A stretch of 59,577 bases of DNA from an uncultured bacterium (GCA_964398355.1 CAYNMM010000120.1:1-59577), one strand, 5' to 3'; positions 1-53,508 are shown, counted from the stretch's first letter. Made by a program: numbers and translations. Notes: a model not told the origin generated them from the letters alone.

Positions 1-335
1 CCACCCCGCAGAGCAGGAGAGAAAATTGAGGATGAAGTCTTATGCAAAGTAGATGAGGGAAATAATGGATATTACTTTTAATCCTGAGGATAAACCCATT
101 TGCTTCAATCATGAATTCTGTATAATTTTTGCATTCTGAGGACAAAGATTTGTGTAATACCTTTCCTCTCAACATACGACCGTTTTGATGTAATTTTCAA
201 AATTTTCAAGGGGAAAGTCAGCCTTTCAATCCTCTCTCACAAAGTGGAGGGAAGAGTGTAGGTGCATTTTTTCGCAATCAGGAGGGGAAAATTATAGAGA
301 GTTTTTCTGCAAAGTGAAAGGGGAAATGTTTATTG
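1..335. repeat. Degenerate ~35-bp-period imperfect-palindrome repeat region (may extend upstream of the window)
   Basis: Unit cores at 7 (cgcagagc), 43 (tgcaaagt), 238 (cacaaagt), 273 (cgcaatca) and 308 (tgcaaagt), each followed by a purine run. Positions 5-29 match the reverse complement of 53388-53412 at 23/25. Confidence 0.6.
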
Positions 336-366
336 GTAAAATAATTTTAACCTTTTGTAATTTCCC

Positions 367-395
367 TTGTTACGTCACGGAGTTGACTATATAAT
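367..395 (+). promoter_or_regulatory. Sigma70-type promoter for the 51-aa gene
   Basis: TTGTTA (367-372), 17 nt spacer, TATAAT (390-395); SD AAGGAGGT at 411-418. Confidence 0.6.
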
Positions 396-4861: not shown

Positions 4862-5580
4862 AGGATTTTACTCATAAACAATTTTGTTCTTGGATGGTCT
4901 GGATTTGTGAAAATCTTGGTGGCAGGTCCTTCTTCAACAATCTTTCCATCGTCCATAAAAATTACCCTTGTAGCAACTTCACGTGCAAATCCCATCTCAT
5001 GAGAGACCACAATCATAGTCATACCTTCGCGTGCGAGCTCTATCATTACGTCGAGCACCTCTTTAATCATCTCCGGATCAAGTGCACTCGTAGGTTCATC
5101 AAAGAGCATTACCTTTGGTTTCATGGCAAGTGCACGCGCAATTGCAACTCTCTGCTGCTGTCCACCTGAGAGCTGAGAAGGATAACTATTTGCTTTGTCT
5201 TTAATACCAACTTTATCAAGAAGTTCAAGAGCAAGTTCTCTCACCTTGTCTTTGGGCTCTTTTTTAACTACCACAGGACCAAGCATCACATTCTGCAACG
5301 CGGTTAAATGCGGAAAAAGATTAAAATGCTGGAAAACCATTCCAACTTCTGCACGAATTTTATTTTTATCCACTCTCTTGTCGGTTATATCCTGGTCTTC
5401 GATATAAATATGTCCACTATCAACTCTCTCAAGCGCATTAATGCAACGCAACATCGTACTTTTTCCTGCACCTGAAGGCCCAACGACAACCACGACTTCT
5501 CCCTTTTTCACCTCAAAACTTATGCCTTTCAAAACATGCAGATGCCCAAACTTTTTATGAATATCAACCACTCTTACCAT
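4858..5580 (-). CDS. Polar amino acid ABC transporter ATPase (GlnQ-like)
   Basis: [35 protein letters not shown]. Confidence 0.95.
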
Positions 5581-6325
5581 TGACCCTCATCCTTCTTTCA
5601 AGATAATGAGTAAACACTGAAAGGGTTGTCGTCATTATGAAATACAAGGCAGCGACTGTAAACCACACTTCAAAGGGTCTGAATATTCTCGAATTAATCT
5701 GACGTCCGGTTAATGTCAACTCCGGTAGAGACATGACCGAGACCAGTGACGAGTCCTTTATAAGGGAAATAAACTGGCCTGCAAGTGGAGGTATGATGAT
5801 TCTAAAAGCTTGTGGAAGAATAATGTATCTCATCACCTGAAAGTAATTCATCCCGAGAGATTGGGCAGCTTCCCACTGACCTTTCGGTATACTCTGAATC
5901 CCCGCCCTGACAATTTCTGTAACATAGGCACCTTCAAAAATGGATAACGCGAACACGGCTGCTTGAAATGCTGTCATTCGAAAAATTGTCGCTACGAAAA
6001 AGTAAACTATAAAAATCTGGATAAGAAGTGGTGTATTCCTGATAGACTCTACATAGATAGATGCAAGCAATCTAAGAGCTGGCTCACTTGAAATTTTCAT
6101 CAATCCGGCAACTATTCCAATAATGATTGCGACAATGGTTGAAACTGCCGAAACTTCAAGTGTAAGAAGGGCAGCTTTCAGGAAAACTGGCATAACTGGA
6201 GGAATATCCTGCCAGTGCCAGTTGTAAATCTGCTTTGCCTGAATGATATAGGCTCCTGCAAATAGAACAAGGAAGAATACACCGAGTATTATGAATGATC
6301 TTAGTGTAAATCTTGATTCACTAAT
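5564..6325 (-). CDS. Polar amino acid ABC permease; probable ATT start giving 253 aa (track start 6193)
   Basis: RNTPLLIQ and [18 protein letters not shown]. The frame is open 44 codons upstream to an ATT behind AGGAGG, adding a TM helix and YNWHW. Confidence 0.85.
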
Positions 6326-6359
6326 GGTATCACTCCTCCTTTATGTTAAATTTTTCAAA

Positions 6360-6387
6360 GGGGGCGCCGCCTTAAGGCGGCGCCCCC
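6360..6387. terminator. Perfect 28-bp palindrome between binding-protein and permease genes
   Basis: gggggcgccgccttaaggcggcgccccc; only a weak U tail on the minus strand. Confidence 0.6.
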
Positions 6388-6397
6388 TACAACATCA

Positions 6398-10963: not shown

Positions 10964-11007
10964 TTTTGTGAGGGCGGCGCTTTTTAAAAAGCGCCGCCCT
11001 CACAAAA
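10964..11007. terminator. Perfect 44-bp palindrome downstream of livK
   Basis: ttttgtgagggcggcgctttttaaaaagcgccgccctcacaaaa; U run follows on the minus strand. Confidence 0.7.
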
Positions 11008-25243: not shown

Positions 25244-25293
25244 ATAAAGAAGTGGTGGGAGGGTTTTGGAAAAACCCTCCCACCACTTCTTTA
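25244..25293. terminator. Bidirectional hairpin between convergent genes
   Basis: ataaagaagtggtgggagggtttt-gg-aaaaccctcccaccacttctttat, 24-nt arms. Confidence 0.8.
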
Positions 25294-25307
25294 TCTTAAC
25301 GATTACC

Positions 25308-29726: not shown

Positions 29727-31208
29727 TCAAGGAGAATCTTTCTTTAATACCAAGATTCCCTCTTTCGTAGGTATCCTTTTATAATCAAATTTTAAAACTT
29801 TCAGTAATTTTATAGCTGAATCTCCGCTAATGGGAGTAAAATCATGCCACGTTGTGTCAATTAAGATATACTCTGCATCGTCTATTCTTGGGAATTGTGT
29901 GACATGCGGACGCATTGCAAGATGTGGTGAAATATGATTTCCAGCTGAAATAATCGCACTTTCAGGAAGACTTCTGATTAAATTGTCAAGATAAAGCTTT
30001 TTACTTATATTGATTTTTGATATATCGATATAGCGTGCAACGGGGTTTTTTAAAAATGAGAACGCTATCCCCAGAGCCACAAAGTACTTGACATTGTTTA
30101 ATCTTTTCCTCGAGCTAAACAATTCGATCATAACCCAGAACACAATCGGAATAAGTATTGCAGAATACTGATAGTATAGCATGAAATTCTGTGGCCTCGA
30201 ACTAAACAAATGCTCACCAAGAGGTAATATATACGCAATCATCCCTTTAGGAAACATAATGGGAATAAATCCGAAACTTGCAAAAAAACTAATTAAAGAT
30301 GAAATCTTTTTATGCGATAGGATAGCACCATTATAATGAGCTTCACGCATAAGTTCCGTATTTGAAAATTTCAACATCAGTATTAGAGCTAAAAGGCTAT
30401 AGACCAAAGTTGGAACAAAAATTATCCAGGCCTTTCTCTGATCTTTCTTTATCAAAAAGTAGAACAATCCTATAGAAATCCATCCTAACGAGATGTCCTC
30501 TTTAAAGCTGAGAGTTAATATTAAAATCAATAAAAAATGATATACTTTCTCTTTTTCCAGGAAATAGATGCCCAATGGAATCAAAGGCATGGCAAAGGTT
30601 TCCAAGTGAAAGTCAAAGCCATTAACCCAATGCACATAAATATTAGAAGCAAATAATAAAATTAGGTAAGAGGAGGTCAATTTATCAATTTTGTAAAATC
30701 TCGCTAACAGATAGATCGCTGGAATCGTCGAAGAGATGGCAAGACCCTGAAGAATCAACAGGATTCTGGGGTCCTTCCAGATATAAAGTACAGTCGAGAG
30801 AAGGAATAACGACGGCCGGATATGACCATAAAAGCCATTTACTTGATTTAAACTGTCCCATAATCTCCCGTACTCATGAATATTGAACAATATACTTGAA
30901 TAATTTCCAAGATCGTATCCTGTAGACATATAAAAGTCGTACCTTAGAAGCTTTAGAATGGTTGTGGTGAGAAAAAATACTATGGTAAACTTTTTTACGT
31001 CCAATCCACCCTTATCAAGCAGCATTAAAAATAGTCCAAGGAAAATTAGGTTTGCCCCAGTGTAAATGCCGTTTGAAACATTATGAAACTTAAATTTAAC
31101 AAACCAAAATTTAGCACTTACTCCCTGTGGATGTAGAGTAAACAAAATAACTGCGACAAAAAGTACGGTTATCCCGATTATTATTAAAATAACCCCCAAT
31201 TTTTTCAT
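29727..31208 (-). CDS. DUF2079-like multi-TM protein (GT-C glycosyltransferase-like), paralog B
   Basis: STGYDLG, GHIRP, FDFHLE, KED, YQYSA. Confidence 0.7.
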   Translation of the reverse strand: MKKLGVILIIIGITVLFVAVILFTLHPQGVSAKFWFVKFKFHNVSNGIYTGANLIFLGLFLMLLDKGGLDVKKFTIVFFLTTTILKLLRYDFYMSTGYDLGNYSSILFNIHEYGRLWDSLNQVNGFYGHIRPSLFLLSTVLYIWKDPRILLILQGLAISSTIPAIYLLARFYKIDKLTSSYLILLFASNIYVHWVNGFDFHLETFAMPLIPLGIYFLEKEKVYHFLLILILTLSFKEDISLGWISIGLFYFLIKKDQRKAWIIFVPTLVYSLLALILMLKFSNTELMREAHYNGAILSHKKISSLISFFASFGFIPIMFPKGMIAYILPLGEHLFSSRPQNFMLYYQYSAILIPIVFWVMIELFSSRKRLNNVKYFVALGIAFSFLKNPVARYIDISKINISKKLYLDNLIRSLPESAIISAGNHISPHLAMRPHVTQFPRIDDAEYILIDTTWHDFTPISGDSAIKLLKVLKFDYKRIPTKEGILVLKKDSP

Positions 31209-32623
31209 CTCATCAAAACCATAACCCCCATACTGTCTGAAACCAGCTTAAATTTCCCTGATGATATTACTTTACTGAGGGTTTTAAGACCAGAATCCAG
31301 GGATACCGGAGTAAAATCATGCCAGGTCGTGTCGACTATTATCATTTCGGCATCCTTTATTATTGGGAACTGATATACTCCATCTCTCGTTGAAAGATGA
31401 GGTGAAATGTGATTCCCAACAGACAATTTCATATTGTCAGGAATTTCTTTTATTAAAGTATCAAGATAAATCTTTTTTCGCAGGTTCAAACGCGAAAAAT
31501 TGATGTACTTTTTTACAGGTCCTTCATTTATGGAAAATAAAACAGCTATTGTAGTAAAAAAAAGCAATGTTTTCCGTGAAATTTTTCTACCATTTAACAC
31601 CTTTAAAGAAGCATAGGTTACAAGTGGAATGAGAAGAGCCGAATACTGGCATTTTAATTTATAATGAAGTGGTCTGGAACTTGAAATATGTTCCAAAAAT
31701 GGAATGAAATACACCGGGATTTCTTTTACTGAGACTACAGGTAAAAATCCGAAACTTGTAAAAAACTCCAGTGTAGGTTTAATCCTCTTTAGAATATTAA
31801 AATTACCCGAATAATGGAGACTCATCATCATTTTGATATTAACAAATTTTAGGATGAGGAATACAACAATAATGCTGTAGAGAACTGAAGGTAATACAAT
31901 TTTAATTCCTTCCTTTTTTCTACCAATTAAGAGGAAATATACACCAAGAGATAGCCATGCAAGAAATACATCCTCCTTAAAGCTCATGGAGATGAGCATT
32001 AAAAGATATAGAATACCGAATCTCCCTTCGTTTAACATCCAGATCCCCAGAAGTAACATTGGCATTGTGATTGTTTCTGGATGAAAATCGAATGCACTTA
32101 CCCAATGTAAGTATATGTTAAAAATCAGGATTATCAAAAGGGAATTAACGTATTTACGCTCAATTTTCATCTGTCTGACAAGCATACAGGTTACAGGAAA
32201 TATCATTGAAATAGCAATTGTTTGAATAAGAAGCAATACTCTCGGATCATTCCACAAAATCATAGATGGAGCAATTAAAAAAGCTCCCGGCCAAATATGA
32301 CCAGAAAAACCATGGACCTGATTCAATCCGTCAAAAATTTTCCCGTGATGTGAAATATTAAATAAAATGTTGGAAAAAATTCCAAGATCAAAACCGGTAG
32401 AGATATAAAACTCATACTGGATTAATTTCAGAGTAAAAACAATCAAAAAGAACAAAAATGACAATTTATAACAATGCTGGCACAAATCTTGAACTTGTAT
32501 TAAACTCAAAAACAATCCCAGAAGCACAACCTTGGAGATTACGACGGGAGGAATTTTTAATAGGAGCGCCACAATGGCAAACAGAAAAGTGGCCAGAAGA
32601 TAAAGAGAAATTTTATTTTTCAT
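31205..32623 (-). CDS. DUF2079-like multi-TM protein, paralog A (start revised to ATG 32623)
   Basis: STGFDLG, GHIWP, FDFHPE, KED, CQYSA; the revised start removes the overlap with the divergent cytochrome b. Confidence 0.7.
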   Translation of the reverse strand: MKNKISLYLLATFLFAIVALLLKIPPVVISKVVLLGLFLSLIQVQDLCQHCYKLSFLFFLIVFTLKLIQYEFYISTGFDLGIFSNILFNISHHGKIFDGLNQVHGFSGHIWPGAFLIAPSMILWNDPRVLLLIQTIAISMIFPVTCMLVRQMKIERKYVNSLLIILIFNIYLHWVSAFDFHPETITMPMLLLGIWMLNEGRFGILYLLMLISMSFKEDVFLAWLSLGVYFLLIGRKKEGIKIVLPSVLYSIIVVFLILKFVNIKMMMSLHYSGNFNILKRIKPTLEFFTSFGFLPVVSVKEIPVYFIPFLEHISSSRPLHYKLKCQYSALLIPLVTYASLKVLNGRKISRKTLLFFTTIAVLFSINEGPVKKYINFSRLNLRKKIYLDTLIKEIPDNMKLSVGNHISPHLSTRDGVYQFPIIKDAEMIIVDTTWHDFTPVSLDSGLKTLSKVISSGKFKLVSDSMGVMVLMR

Positions 32624-32669
32624 GATGAGAGAATATTTTAAAGCTGTAAAACTTTTAGTAAAATAGACA

Positions 32670-33518
32670 ATGCAAGGGAACAACAAACTAACATGGGGTG
32701 ATATTAGTTTCCATTCTTTCGTAATTGCAATTATTACTGGCGTCATCGTTAGTTTCAAATATTCTCCAACATCTCCATACTCGTCACTGGAAAAGCTTTC
32801 AGGGTTGTTACCCTGGGGAGAATTATTCAGAAGATTGCATTACTTCTCCGGTCAGATTTTTTTAATCTCATTAATCCTACATAAACTGGATTTTCTCAGG
32901 AATAATATCAAATATTCTGCCCGAAAGTGGTTTCTGGAGGTCATATCAATATTTCCCGTGGCCTTTCTGGTCTTATTTACAGGGTATATTTTAAGAGGGG
33001 ATAAGTCTGGCATCTTTGCAAAAGATGTAGCAATTAATCTACTCCGTTCAATCCCCCTTGGGGGAGCTATGTTGGGAAAATTGTTGTTCGGAACTATTGA
33101 TTCGAAAAGTTTGTTTATACCCTTTCTGAATCATGCCATAATACTCACCCTTATCATAATATATCTAATGTTCTGGCATAGGAGGCTCCTGATGCCGGAC
33201 ACTGAAAAATTAATTTATACCTTCATTCCGGTACTGATTGCTTCAATAATCTTCAATCCAGCGATAGGCGTATCTCCAAATTATCCAATGGACCCGGTAA
33301 AAGGTCCCTGGTTCTTTCTCGGCATTCAGGAACTTGTCTATGAGATTAATCCTCTCTGCGGGGGAATAATCTTTCCTCTAACTCTACTGATTCTCCTTGG
33401 ATTGTACAGAAATAAGAAAATTTTCAGTTTTCTTTTCTGGATAATGACTGTTTTTTATCTTGTGATGACACTGATTGCCGGGTTATTAAGGGGTCCAGGC
33501 TGGAAATTGCTGGTGTAA
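32670..33518 (+). CDS. Compact cytochrome b/b6-type protein with a fused subunit-IV-like C-terminus
   Basis: Paired His in RRLHYFSGQIFLISLILH and NHAIILTLIIIYLMFWH; FTGYILRGD; GPWFFLGIQE. Confidence 0.8.
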   Translation: MQGNNKLTWGDISFHSFVIAIITGVIVSFKYSPTSPYSSLEKLSGLLPWGELFRRLHYFSGQIFLISLILHKLDFLRNNIKYSARKWFLEVISIFPVAFLVLFTGYILRGDKSGIFAKDVAINLLRSIPLGGAMLGKLLFGTIDSKSLFIPFLNHAIILTLIIIYLMFWHRRLLMPDTEKLIYTFIPVLIASIIFNPAIGVSPNYPMDPVKGPWFFLGIQELVYEINPLCGGIIFPLTLLILLGLYRNKKIFSFLFWIMTVFYLVMTLIAGLLRGPGWKLLV

Positions 33519-39910: not shown

Positions 39911-40558
39911 CTACAAAACACGAAGTGGATTGGTCTCCCAGTTCGAAATAAGAATTTCAGTCAGTTCCTTCTTAATTTTATCAAAATTTACCTTACTACC
40001 GAGTAATTGTCTCATGGAAGCTGTTCCCTTACCTCTAATGCCGCAAGGAATGATTAAATCGAAAAATCTCAAATCTGTATTTACATTCAAAGCAAATCCA
40101 TGGTAAGTAACGCTATCGCTTAGTGCAAGTCCTATAGCAGCTATTTTTTTGTTACCAACCCATACTCCGATTTCTCTGTCATTTTTACTTGCCTCAATAC
40201 CATACCGAGCAAGCAATTCGATAATCGAGTCTTCCAAATAATAAACAAACCTTCTAAGTCCGCCGATATGTCCTCTAATTTTAAATATCAGATAACCTAC
40301 AAGTTGACCAGGGCCGTGGTAAGTAACATCACCCCCACGATCTACTGAATAAATCTCCACTCCTTTATTTTTTAGAATTTCTTTTGAAACCTTTATATTA
40401 TCCTCATTTCCATGCTTGCCGAGAGTAATGACATGGGGGTGCTCAACAAGTATCAATGTATCACCAATCAGGTCTTTTTTTCTTTTATCCACAAGTTCAA
40501 GCTGAAATTTCCAAACATCCTTATAACCTGACAATCCAAGATCCAGGACATTTACCAT
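39911..40558 (-). CDS. lipB: Octanoyltransferase
   Basis: EHPHVITLG, RGGDVTYHGPGQLV, KIAAIG, HGFALN, IIPCG. Confidence 0.95.
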   Translation of the reverse strand: MVNVLDLGLSGYKDVWKFQLELVDKRKKDLIGDTLILVEHPHVITLGKHGNEDNIKVSKEILKNKGVEIYSVDRGGDVTYHGPGQLVGYLIFKIRGHIGGLRRFVYYLEDSIIELLARYGIEASKNDREIGVWVGNKKIAAIGLALSDSVTYHGFALNVNTDLRFFDLIIPCGIRGKGTASMRQLLGSKVNFDKIKKELTEILISNWETNPLRVL

Positions 40559-41871
40559 GTCTGTCTGACTCTGTACACGAGTTCCGTCTTGTCATGTGCT
40601 TTTACAGGTACCACAAATTCTACTGTATATGCATCTTTCAACTGAGGAGGATGAGTTGACTGAACAATCTCCCAGAACCCGTAAAAATGGTCAATCACGT
40701 GAACTGTCACATCTTTATCTTTGAAATTATTTATAACCACTTTGATATCTTCTTCCTGCTCTCTCTCCGACAATTTATAACGTTTCAAAATTGTTCTTTT
40801 GGCTTTAATATCGAACGCATCTCCCACGTATAAATTAACCTCACCCTTCACAGGAGTATGAGATATCCTGTCTTCACCGAGAAATTCTTTAGCTCCACTC
40901 GCTCCAACTTTGAAAATTTTGACTTTCCCCTCAGGCAATGCAACCCCAAGACCATGGATTTTTGAATTTTTAAACTTCAGAATTACCTTCACGTTCTCTC
41001 CACGACCATCGAATTGGTAAATCTTCTCAAATTTTACTTTTTTGTCTGAGATAAAATTAATTTGTTTCTTCTCATTATTTTTCAATGTTGTGGGGAAGTC
41101 TATAGAATAAGTGTGATATTCAAACATTTTTCCGGGTGTTACCGGTGGGCCACCAGCTGTTTCAGGGGCACCTGCAATTTTCATAGCTGGACCGTACACC
41201 TGACGCTTACCACCAACTCTATGAATTTTACCAGCCACCAGCATTATCTTTGCATCATTAAAATTTGTACCACTCTGATTGTCGATCGATATCCATGCAC
41301 TAAAGTCAAGACTATCCCCCTTGATAATACCAATGTACTCCGCTGCCCAGTTGAGACCTTCCGTGAGGTAAGATAATTTCATCTGTCTTGTTCCACTATC
41401 CTGTGAAACTGTTTTCAGAACTATTGTTGGTGTAGTTAGCACATCGGATGGCAAATTATCCATGTTAATTTGAACAACATTATCATGCCTGATAATTGTT
41501 GTTCTCTCCTGTTGTTTAAGAATAATCATAGAGGGATCATAGTAAATCAGGGTTCCTGTTAATACAGTACCTCCTTTTAAAATAACATCAATGGTTTTCC
41601 CCTTCAATTTGCCCAACAACTTATCGATTGTAGCGAGATCGTATTCATAGTTTTCTTCCAGAATTTTCGTCCCGGGTATCTCTACCCTCACACTCGTTGG
41701 ATCGATTTTCTGAGCAACGCCCTTTATTTCCAGAATAGATGTATCGGGTAAAACATGAATTGTTCTGGTCTCATTAACAAGACCTATACCCTGATTATAA
41801 ATTGTTAGTCTTACCCCACCAAAAAGTAGAGAAGTGGAAAGAAATAATGGTATATTTAAAAATTTTTTCAT
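40552..41871 (-). CDS. DUF4139-like exported protein (start revised to ATG 41871)
   Basis: Signal-like N-terminus, LTIYNQG, YLTEGLNW, NQSG, GEDRISHTP. Confidence 0.75.
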   Translation of the reverse strand: MKKFLNIPLFLSTSLLFGGVRLTIYNQGIGLVNETRTIHVLPDTSILEIKGVAQKIDPTSVRVEIPGTKILEENYEYDLATIDKLLGKLKGKTIDVILKGGTVLTGTLIYYDPSMIILKQQERTTIIRHDNVVQINMDNLPSDVLTTPTIVLKTVSQDSGTRQMKLSYLTEGLNWAAEYIGIIKGDSLDFSAWISIDNQSGTNFNDAKIMLVAGKIHRVGGKRQVYGPAMKIAGAPETAGGPPVTPGKMFEYHTYSIDFPTTLKNNEKKQINFISDKKVKFEKIYQFDGRGENVKVILKFKNSKIHGLGVALPEGKVKIFKVGASGAKEFLGEDRISHTPVKGEVNLYVGDAFDIKAKRTILKRYKLSEREQEEDIKVVINNFKDKDVTVHVIDHFYGFWEIVQSTHPPQLKDAYTVEFVVPVKAHDKTELVYRVRQTW

Positions 41872-41884
41872 GGTAAACACCTCC

Positions 41885-42481
41885 TTAAAGTTCACGACGA
41901 CCCTGAATAGCCTCTTTCAATGTCAGGGCATCAGAGAAAGAAAGATCTATTCCTGTGGGTAAACCTCTTGCTATCCTTGTAACTTTAACATCAACCCCTT
42001 TTAACTTTTCCTTAATGTATATAGACGTTGTATCTCCCTCAATTGTGGGAGACAGGGCAAGAATAACCTCTTTTATATGCTCTTCTTTAATTCTTTCGAC
42101 AAGGTCTTCTATATAGAGATCATCCGGGCCAATACCATGGAGAGGAGAAATTACCCCCCCGAGGACATGATATTTACCCTCAAAAAAACCAGATTTTTCA
42201 ATTAAGAACACATCCTGTGGTCTTTCTACCACGCATATTACTTCCTGGTTTCTGGTCGGATCCGTACAGATAGGACATGGATCAACATCTGTAATCACGT
42301 GACATACAGAACAAAAAGTAAGCACTTCATTGGCATCTGTTAAAACTTCTATCAGTGAATTGAGCTCATCAGGACGTTTCAGAAGATGAAAAGCTATCCT
42401 CTCTGCGGATCTTTCACCAATTCCAGGTAACTTCTTGAGAGTTTCAATTAGCTTACGAAGGGATAAGGGGACCCACATCAC
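41885..42481 (-). CDS. recR: Recombination protein RecR
   Basis: LPGIGERSA, C4 zinc finger CSVC...CPIC, YHVLGG, toprim motif, ARGLP. Confidence 0.95.
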   Translation of the reverse strand: MMWVPLSLRKLIETLKKLPGIGERSAERIAFHLLKRPDELNSLIEVLTDANEVLTFCSVCHVITDVDPCPICTDPTRNQEVICVVERPQDVFLIEKSGFFEGKYHVLGGVISPLHGIGPDDLYIEDLVERIKEEHIKEVILALSPTIEGDTTSIYIKEKLKGVDVKVTRIARGLPTGIDLSFSDALTLKEAIQGRREL

Positions 42482-49553: not shown

Positions 49554-49560
49554 TTTGATA

Positions 49561-49590
49561 AGTATAAAAAAGGCCTTTCATTTGTGTCAA
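49561..49590 (-). promoter_or_regulatory. Promoter of ftsK, probably leaderless
   Basis: Minus strand TTGACA, 18 nt, TATACT, 7 nt, ATG; no SD. Confidence 0.65.
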
Positions 49591-49959
49591 ATTAAAAACA
49601 ACTGTATTTGGAAATTTGCTGATGAGAAAAAAATGGAATTGTATTCTCCAGCTCCATTGAAATGTTAAATACTAAAAGAAAAGGTTGGCGTTTTATGTGA
49701 TCTTACCTCCCACTCATACACTCGTACTTTATTAAAGAAGTGGCACAAAAAACATTGGCATTGCCTTTAATTTCAAAATTGAGTAAAAGACTCCTACAAC
49801 GTGGAGGCAAAAATCTGACTAATATGTACAGCTTTTTAAATCGATCTTTGCGTGCAGAGAATATATGAAAGCACTTAATACATCATTCGAAATTTTTTAA
49901 AAACCCCATTAAACATAGTCTTTCGTATTTTCAGCCTCCATGATATAAAAATTTCAGGT

Positions 49960-52837: not shown

Positions 52838-53251
52838 ATGGCTAACAAGCTTGTGGAGGTTGAGGTTTATCAAATTCTAATAGATGAGTCTGTTAAAGCA
52901 CCTGTAGTGGTACTTAAGGAGAAAGGTGGGGACCGTATATTACCCATCTGGATTGGCCAGGCAGAAGCAGTTTCGATCGCTTATGCTCTTGAAGAAATAG
53001 CAACAGAAAGACCTCTTACTCACGATCTAATTAAACTCATTATTGATGGATTTGGGGCAAGACTGGAAAAAGTCGTTATTAATGATCTGAAAGAAAACAC
53101 ATATTTTGCAAGGTTAGTTTTCAAAATTGATTCAACAATTATAAGTATTGATGCGAGACCCTCTGATTCAATTGCAATTGCATTGAGAACAAAATCACCC
53201 ATATTCGTTTCCGAAAAGGTTATGAAAGAGGGGGGAGCAACAGAGCAATAG
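52838..53251 (+). CDS. Bifunctional nuclease family protein (DUF151; start revised to ATG 52838)
   Basis: LPIWIG, RPLTHDL, IDARPSDSIAIALR; SD GAGGTG. Confidence 0.88.
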   Translation: MANKLVEVEVYQILIDESVKAPVVVLKEKGGDRILPIWIGQAEAVSIAYALEEIATERPLTHDLIKLIIDGFGARLEKVVINDLKENTYFARLVFKIDSTIISIDARPSDSIAIALRTKSPIFVSEKVMKEGGATEQ

Positions 53252-53284
53252 CTGATAATGTTCGAAAAAAATATTTTACTGAGA

Positions 53285-53422
53285 TTACTTCCTCTCTCAT
53301 TTTGTGGAAGAGTTCTCTTTATTTTTCCTCTTGCTTGCGAGTAGATCCACCCACAGTTTCCTCTCATGAGGTGGGAAGAGATTATATTCAATTTACTCTC
53401 CTGCTTTGCGGGAGAAGAGGTT
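53285..53422. repeat. Four degenerate palindromic units with a 34-36-bp period; inverted homolog of the 1-335 array
   Basis: Unit centres at 53298, 53332, 53366 and 53402; collinear similarity to 228-330 with mostly transition mismatches. Confidence 0.65.
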
Positions 53423-53479
53423 AAAAAAAACATTCATCCCCTTTCTCAAAGCATTTTTTCGATCGGCCTCAGCAATAGC

Positions 53480-53508
53480 TTGACGTGTTAAAGGCACAGC
53501 CAAATAAT
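53480..53508 (+). promoter_or_regulatory. Promoter of the pyrR cluster, probably leaderless
   Basis: TTGACG, 17 nt, AATAAT, 7 nt, ATG; no SD. Confidence 0.55.

Follow-up and report, generated by a model that had tools for sequence, protein, structure and literature searches.

The window analysed here is a complete contig of 59,577 bp from a hydrothermal-vent metagenome. Its enolase is 70-72% identical to those of the closest named relatives, which are assigned to Candidatus Hydrothermota, WOR-3 or Hydrothermia, and the host probably lies near Candidatus Hydrothermota / WOR-3. Exact-protein look-ups returned no record for the helicase and for the 181-aa PyrR ORF of the contig. Two intergenic regions carry arrays of short palindromic units. 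The left array lies at the very start of the contig and is followed by a 51-aa membrane ORF (425-580). The right array is located between a gene for a BFN-domain protein (stop codon 53249-53251) and pyrR.

Each of the five units in positions 1-345 consists of a pyrimidine tract, a (C)GCAAAG-like core and a purine tract with GGAG or GAGG, followed by AAAT. The cores (GCA(A/G)AG or CACAAAG) lie at 8, 44, 239, 274 and 309; these positions give all of the spacings of 36, 35 and 35 nt that the initial annotation of this DNA had claimed. Four further units form one contiguous run on the minus strand of 53279-53419, and all units within one copy point in the same direction. The relationship between the two arrays had also been described correctly. 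Of the 25 positions of 5-29, 23 agree with the reverse complement of 53388-53412, and a repeat search extends this match to 37 nt at 81%. Positions 228-348 are collinear with the reverse complement of 53270-53392, with 78 identical positions, 27 transitions, 9 transversions and 16 gaps, so that the mismatches are indeed mostly transitions.

Within 228-345 the lag autocorrelation is highest at 35 nt (z = 4.3); the right array has its maximum at 34-37 nt (z = 2-3.5). Shuffled sequences, proposed in the annotation as a potential refutation, did not reproduce the pattern equally well: allowing up to 3 mismatches it gave 7 matches versus 2.0 expected, a number reached in 1 of 100 shuffles, and five of the 7 matches fall inside the two loci. 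A profile of nine units, which is circular for those units themselves, scored nothing else above 5 bits in the window. The units are about 60% alike, abut each other without spacers and have positional orthologues between copies. The array was thus rightly said not to be CRISPR, and Tandem Repeats Finder reported no array. On the basis of the alignments, the two arrays are two copies of one non-coding element, at 1-357 and, on the opposite strand, at 53254-53470.

Other regions of the window are worth recording. Four GC-rich palindromes, perfect or near-perfect and with A and T runs alongside (10964-11007, 25244-25294, 601-630 and 6358-6388), lie between convergent or adjacent genes; they resemble bidirectional intrinsic terminators and have no relation to the element. 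Two tandem paralogous genes for DUF2079 membrane proteins (29727-32758), with about 72% DNA identity in blocks, are located in the part of the window with the lowest GC content (0.34). A 447-aa ORF at 40552-41895 on the minus strand has no Pfam match at E ≤ 1e-5.

The right copy and its empty sites

The right copy (53254-53470, minus strand from head to tail) is a complete short form of 217 bp, in which head and tail are homologous to those of a copy on another contig, L005. A perfect direct repeat of 10 bp, AGCAATAGCT, borders it on both sides. The first target copy (53244-53253) includes the stop codon of the BFN-domain gene; the pyrR -35 hexamer begins with the last T of the second (53471-53480). 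Between these repeats lie the terminal inverted repeat of the tail (53254-53279; GATAATGTTCGAAAAAAATATTTTAC when read on the plus strand), four contiguous modules at 53279-53419 (Z, 53312-53279; Y, 53344-53313; X, 53380-53345; U1, 53419-53381) and the terminal inverted repeat of the head (53445-53470; GAGGCCGATCGAAAAAATGCTTTGAG when read on the minus strand).

The right copy is missing at the orthologous BFN-pyrR junction of five relatives, namely L009 (GCA_053989435.1), L010 (GCA_054021575.1), L011, L012 and L014/L015, the enolases of which are up to 95-96% identical to that of the window. The spacer between the two genes measures 40-52 bp in these relatives versus 276 bp in the window. All of the empty sites contain the target once, as AGCAGTAGCT, AACAGTAGCT or AATAATAACT, directly before the same TTGACG. 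The promoter-like sequence of pyrR, TTGACG-N17-AATAAT (53480-53508, plus strand), is present there too and is an older neighbour of the element; because the empty sites carry TTGACG, the hexamer pre-exists the insertion. At the level of sequence, this pair of filled and empty sites proves that the right copy, the one insertion for which the comparison is clean, was inserted with a 10-bp target duplication. A decayed resident gene, the other refutation that the annotation had considered, and a locally evolved array are therefore ruled out.

In a close relative (L008/L016 position 1, ENA contig k131_73697) the contig stops 6 nt past the insertion position upstream of pyrR. The Logan assembly L014 of the same species has an empty site, and this may reflect a filled/empty polymorphism that breaks the assembly.

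Architecture and dispersal of the element

When a 20-mer from module U2 was searched against metagenome contigs, one real match (L005) and two chance matches in coding sequence were obtained; a 20-mer from the tail gave just two chance matches, both from Bacteroidota, in genome contigs. In L005, a complete copy of 660 bp (4990-5649) has the gene for a zinc alcohol dehydrogenase on one side and tRNA-Gln on the other. BLAST aligned window positions 1-220 with L005 5113-5334 (84% identical, E = 3e-56) and 247-348 with L005 5534-5635 (82% identical, E = 1e-19), and the right locus with the L005 tail (73%, E = 2e-15) as well as with the initial 64 bp of the L005 copy (73%, E = 2e-6). The flanks of this copy, AGTTGTGTCT and AGTTGCGTCT, form a duplication with 9 of 10 identical positions. 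In two further contigs, L017 and L018, the sequence shared with L005 begins only at the right target copy, and L017 fixes the boundary. A diverged copy of about 520 bp is present at L013 625-1144 (E = 1e-18 versus L005).

The four-way alignment of both window copies with L005 and L013 places the modules U1, (U2 + core), X, Y and Z between a conserved head and a conserved tail. The right copy has the order head-U1-X-Y-Z-tail, while the left copy represents the long form. Sizes are 217 bp for the right copy, 660 bp for L005, about 520 bp for L013 and, for the left copy, at least 357 bp plus the missing head; the optional core accounts for about 150-400 bp. The ~35-bp units which had been annotated as the repeat do exist, but it is the whole element of 217-660 bp which repeats, and the units are positional modules that are orthologous between copies. 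The terminal inverted repeats are weak and imperfect, about 17-26 bp long and alike at about 16 of 25 positions; in two copies their register agrees with both ends. The sequence of the head is GAGGCCGWTCRAAAAAA, and that of the tail, as its reverse complement, is GATRRTGTTCGAAAAA; written as a pair, the ends of the element are GAGGCCGWTCRAAAAAA ... TTTTTYGAACAYYATC. In two sets of 2000 shuffles, 55 and 10 reached the local alignment scores of these repeats. A6-7/T6-7 tracts are present at both ends, and the four located copies are all intergenic.

The left copy (1-357, plus strand from head to tail) is cut at base 1 because the end of the contig falls inside the element; compared with L005 it is without some 123 bp of the head. 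In related contigs the intergenic region before the 51-aa ORF measures 629 bp, with mnmA on its other side, and the window contig therefore starts inside the left array. The feature annotated at 1-335 is hence real, but its extent was not correct, since the copy reaches about 357 and begins before the first base of the contig. It starts with U1 (1-37; pyrimidine arm, GCAGAGC loop and purine arm), the orthologue of 53419-53381 in the right copy. U2 (38-73) and the non-repetitive core of the long form (74-229), which is also found in L005, are both missing from the right copy. The modules X (230-266), Y (267-300) and Z (301-336) follow from the four-way alignment and from profile matches, and the alignment also delimits a decayed tail (337-357) with a remnant of the right terminal repeat, starting with GGTAAAATAATTTT. 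Some metagenome contigs join position 128 straight to 302, which points to deletion variants. Multi-copy depth stops at 343-350 in the tail, where the flanks diverge, and homology to the related contig L001 restarts at about 349-352. By analogy with the other copies, the target copy would be TAATTTCCCT at 358-367 (plus strand), of which a single side is visible because the end of the contig removes the second one. It is followed directly by TGTTAC of the neighbour's -35 region. The respective promoter-like sequence, TTGTTA-N17-TATAAT (367-395, plus strand), precedes the 51-aa membrane ORF, lies outside the element and is conserved in L001/L002.

The spacer between mnmA and the 51-aa ORF of L001 has features of its own. 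On the plus strand of L001 9500-9545 it contains a terminator-like hairpin, CCCCTTCtggcGAAGGGG, ahead of T-rich sequence, with no annotated gene upstream. Hairpin units in diverged form are found there as well, and where the left copy of the window has its tail, the spacer has a tail-like ATCGCGACCCTTC.

The annotation had called the family dispersed, and the source metagenomes agree: unitig depth is about 10-20 times that of single-copy sequence, with many different flanks, and as this depth sums all organisms in a sample it shows multiplicity, not copies per genome. On the window it amounts to 86-121 over 49-72, within U2, and to 73-97 over 313-336, versus 4-10 for flanking single-copy sequence. 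Depth is in the multi-copy range over 1-176 and 289-350 and in the single-copy range beyond about 360. The values for the L005 tail are 130-198 versus 9-11, and here many distinct flanks and several deletion joints were found. No copies beyond the four were detected by BLAST and nhmmer in about 190 kb of related contigs.

One short piece of the L005 core is represented far more strongly. In X1 the stretch L005 5437-5466 (about 30 nt, TTAAGGAGGGGGCAGAAAGGGCAGACTTGA) is covered by unitigs to a depth of about 4200, and in X2 to about 970, versus 9-11 for single-copy sequence, and it occurs in 151 (X1) and 66 (X2) different short unitigs. It is conserved in the distant L013 copy and missing from the window copies. 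Either the piece exists in a very large number of copies or a dominant organism carries it.

A second dispersed intergenic family, here called 'B', consists of hairpins with pyrimidine and purine arms; it was found at L010 6200-6620 and 18330-18480 and at L020 17063-17205 and 15577-15635. One of its copies ends with TTTTTCGAACATTATC, which is identical to the tail end of the right copy, 13 nt from a TTGACA. The contig end L010 18540-18629 consists of about 90 consecutive C, most likely an assembly or sequencing artefact of the public MAG. The spacer between ftsK and a 2-hydroxyacid dehydrogenase gene (49554-49959) measures 406 bp in the window, 114 bp in L014 and 528 bp in L010. It cannot be aligned past the first ~45 bp, is hypervariable and contains TTCGAAATTTTTT; older or different insertions are possible there.

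Nature of the element

MITEs are recognised by inverted ends, a target duplication, the absence of a gene and multiple intergenic copies (PMC10969869). A decayed MITE-like element was one of three options in the annotation, and this option is supported by terminal inverted repeats within the range of about 4-30 bp, a perfect 10-bp target duplication with empty sites in five relatives, the absence of an ORF or gene and the dispersal of multiple intergenic copies. The size of MITEs is typically below 500 bp; the right copy with its 217 bp is below this norm and L005 with 660 bp is above it. The family had been described as non-coding, in agreement with a longest ORF of 34 aa in 1-345 and with the length of the right copy, which is just 217 bp; ORFs of 80 aa in the L005 copy are not conserved between copies. 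We conclude that both arrays are most probably copies of a single, non-autonomous MITE-type DNA transposon. No transposase was detected when 20 window ORFs were searched against Pfam, or in the Pfam annotation of related contigs amounting to about 190 kb. The 10-bp staggered cut would be made by a DDE-type transposase supplied in trans. The number of modules would change by internal duplication and deletion, and the differences between copies, mostly transitions, would reflect decay after insertion.

Another option of the annotation, a multi-hairpin RNA, is not supported. A family of small structured RNAs (e.g. a CsrA/RsmE-type sponge), with genes that were duplicated or mobilised around the genome, is suggested by the GGA or Shine-Dalgarno-like GGAG which every module carries in its purine arm on one strand. 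Each module can also form a small hairpin, head and tail pair in the minimum-free-energy fold, and in L005 the head is preceded, at a distance of about 60 nt, by a promoter-like site. However, neither locus on either strand, nor the complete right copy, folds clearly better than its shuffles (z-scores of -0.7 to -1.5), and the hairpins of the units have no strand asymmetry, with summed energies of -78.6 versus -79.4 kcal/mol. The GGA motifs are located in stem arms and not in loops, and a terminator-like site is predicted neither at the two loci nor in L005. The differences between copies often break pairs, giving C-A or U-G from C-G, and do not compensate, while the orientation of the copies relative to neighbouring genes varies; no RNA sequencing run contains the locus. 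A search of Rfam with the whole window at gathering thresholds, and with both loci, L005 and L013 by E-value, gave no match even at E up to 10 other than chance-level matches to miRNAs and snoRNAs, in line with the earlier remark that no named family was recognised. An RNA family is, in view of these results, very improbable. A more specific candidate, a sponge of the CsrB/RsmZ type, was rejected on the position of GGA in the 3' stem arms and the lack of a terminator and of an Rfam match. The PyrR binding site (RF00515) was considered since pyrR lies downstream. It was rejected as well: there was no match at gathering or E-value thresholds, the GAGAGG-like motifs are antisense and upstream of the promoter, and the element is missing from relatives. 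The hairpin modules of the transposon could be a structural by-product, binding sites, or RNA hairpins which form when the element is read through.

Units of BIMEs alternate in orientation, carry a conserved GTAG-type tetranucleotide and are spread by RAYTs, a kind of mobility that leaves no target duplication. If each ~35-bp unit were an independent hairpin of the REP type, spread by a RAYT (Y1 transposase), the arrays would be clusters of such units, and the clustering of ~35-bp imperfect palindromes in intergenic DNA is indeed a feature shared with REP/BIME and REPINs (PMC3184786). Near-perfect palindromes of the same build at L013 920-956 and L005 5405-5445, and the massive over-representation of the ~30-nt L005 core piece in the metagenome, point in the same direction. 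The right copy, however, was inserted as a single 217-bp block with inverted ends and a 10-bp duplication. Moreover, all units of a copy are direct and not alternating, they have positional orthologues between copies, the unit profile finds no solitary units elsewhere in the 59.6 kb, and a RAYT/Y1 transposase domain is missing from all gene tables; an origin from REP-type units is thus very improbable. Highly improbable is the remaining option of the annotation, a locally evolved and non-mobile array of protein-binding sites upstream of promoters. The recurrence of the GCAAAG-type core at about 35 bp, roughly 3.3 helical turns, and the position of the arrays just upstream of promoters would suit such sites. 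Yet the presence/absence polymorphism and the exact 10-bp duplication mean that the block was inserted, and binding sites alone cannot explain this polymorphism. The same block also stands beside unrelated genes (pyrR, the 51-aa ORF and tRNA-Gln), and no candidate binding protein is known. Protein binding could nonetheless be a secondary property of the mobile element. Finally, single units are short and degenerate and the z-scores of the periodicity are moderate (2-4), as might be found in low-complexity DNA with a purine/pyrimidine skew or in a decayed coding sequence. Such a chance resemblance has a practically negligible probability in view of BLAST E values of 1e-15 to 1e-56 against the independent contig L005 and of a pattern count above that of 99 of 100 shuffles, and the empty sites rule out a resident gene.

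The MITE-type transposon can be compared with several known families. The BOX repeats of Streptococcus pneumoniae are modular and MITE-like, with the structure boxA-boxB(n)-boxC and a length of 67-637 bp (PMC3049150). Like the element described here they are non-coding, intergenic and dispersed, have an inverted-repeat head and tail around a variable number of short direct internal modules, which can form hairpins, and they share the wide size range (217-660 bp here) and target-site duplications. In contrast to BOX, the modules here are about 35 bp long and positionally distinct (U1, U2, X, Y, Z) instead of being one repeated boxB; the duplication is 10 bp, and placement at a constant distance from -35 hexamers has not been described for BOX. 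Since the host belongs to another phylum, a sequence relationship is not expected. BrickBuilt of Porphyromonas gingivalis, a minisatellite inside a MITE (PMC4596501), also has a leader and a tail with small inverted-repeat ends that enclose tandem short repeats. It is likewise always intergenic and multi-copy and has promoter-like segments, which in our case are predicted from sequence. Its repeats are 23 nt long, near-identical and without spacers, whereas those found here are about 35 bp long, degenerate and palindromic; host lineage and sequence also differ. Correia, ERIC and RUP (PMC10969869) resemble the element in their terminal inverted repeats, flanking direct repeats, absence of a transposase gene and multiple intergenic copies that decay over time. 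They differ in that the long form of the present element exceeds 500 bp and in that the element does not fold as one long hairpin. The 10-bp duplication is unusual among named bacterial MITEs. The kind of element is known, and the family is new and unnamed; the new feature would be its placement in register with promoters, if this holds.

Placement beside -35 hexamers

At 8 of about 17 readable ends, where each insertion can show TTGAC on one side only, TGAC of a TTGAC(A/G/T) -35-like hexamer comes directly after the 10-bp target, irrespective of the orientation of the element. TTGAC is hence 9-10 nt from the end of the element, and the hexamer straddles the last base of the target. The right copy of the window has its head towards the pyrR promoter TTGACG-N17-AATAAT. 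L005 has its tail towards the promoter of tRNA-Gln, TTGACA-N18-AAAAAT. The L013 copy, from a more distant relative whose PyrR is 78% identical, also precedes pyrR. Its end is separated from TGACG by 10 bp, with the tail at the same pyrR promoter position as in the window and with the opposite element orientation; it looks like an independent hit on the same target. The other cases are unitig flanks, three on the tail side and two on the head side, with one off by one base on each side. The background frequency of TTGAC is about 0.0009 per position and strand, and the binomial P is about 1e-14 to 1e-18, for a pattern that was noticed after the fact, is based on small numbers and on 30-nt unitig flanks that do not allow pairing, and includes two cases shifted by one base.

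These data suggest that insertion is non-random and targeted next to promoters, with the element landing at about -36 to -45 of a TTGAC(A/G/T) -35-like hexamer. The choice of the target may read the TTGAC motif or the promoter architecture. The element also contains an outward promoter-like motif of its own, GTGAAA-N17-TAAAAT, which spans module Z and the tail (314-342, plus strand; 53300-53273, minus strand; L005 5601-5629) and is preceded by an upstream TG in two copies. With this motif and the A/T-tract ends, an effect of the element on the adjacent promoter is plausible. We tentatively propose, as a possibility that is still rather doubtful, a promoter-targeting transposable element, the machinery of which would recognise TTGAC(A/G/T), or sigma-70/RNA polymerase bound there, and insert with a 10-bp stagger at exactly -36 to -45 in either orientation. 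Such an element would be recognised by insertions that hit the same base in front of pyrR independently, in two lineages and with opposite orientations. A literature search on -35-targeted insertion found nothing relevant. To our knowledge, no class of bacterial transposons has been described that keeps a fixed register with the -35 box, and the promoter-adjacent placement is unusual for named bacterial MITEs.

For annotation, the element accounts for one contig break and for two intergenic regions that are hypervariable, and it is a caution against taking such arrays for RNA genes or CRISPR remnants. If promoter targeting is true, each insertion would replace the UP-element/activator region of a promoter by the A-tract ends, the hairpin modules and the outward promoter-like motif of the element. 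This would amount to a built-in device for the rewiring of transcription in the compact genome of an uncultured vent bacterium near Hydrothermota/WOR-3. The target selector of the element could be of practical interest, and the placement, if confirmed, would provide a natural system for promoter-proximal target choice by mobile DNA that reshapes the sequence upstream of promoters.
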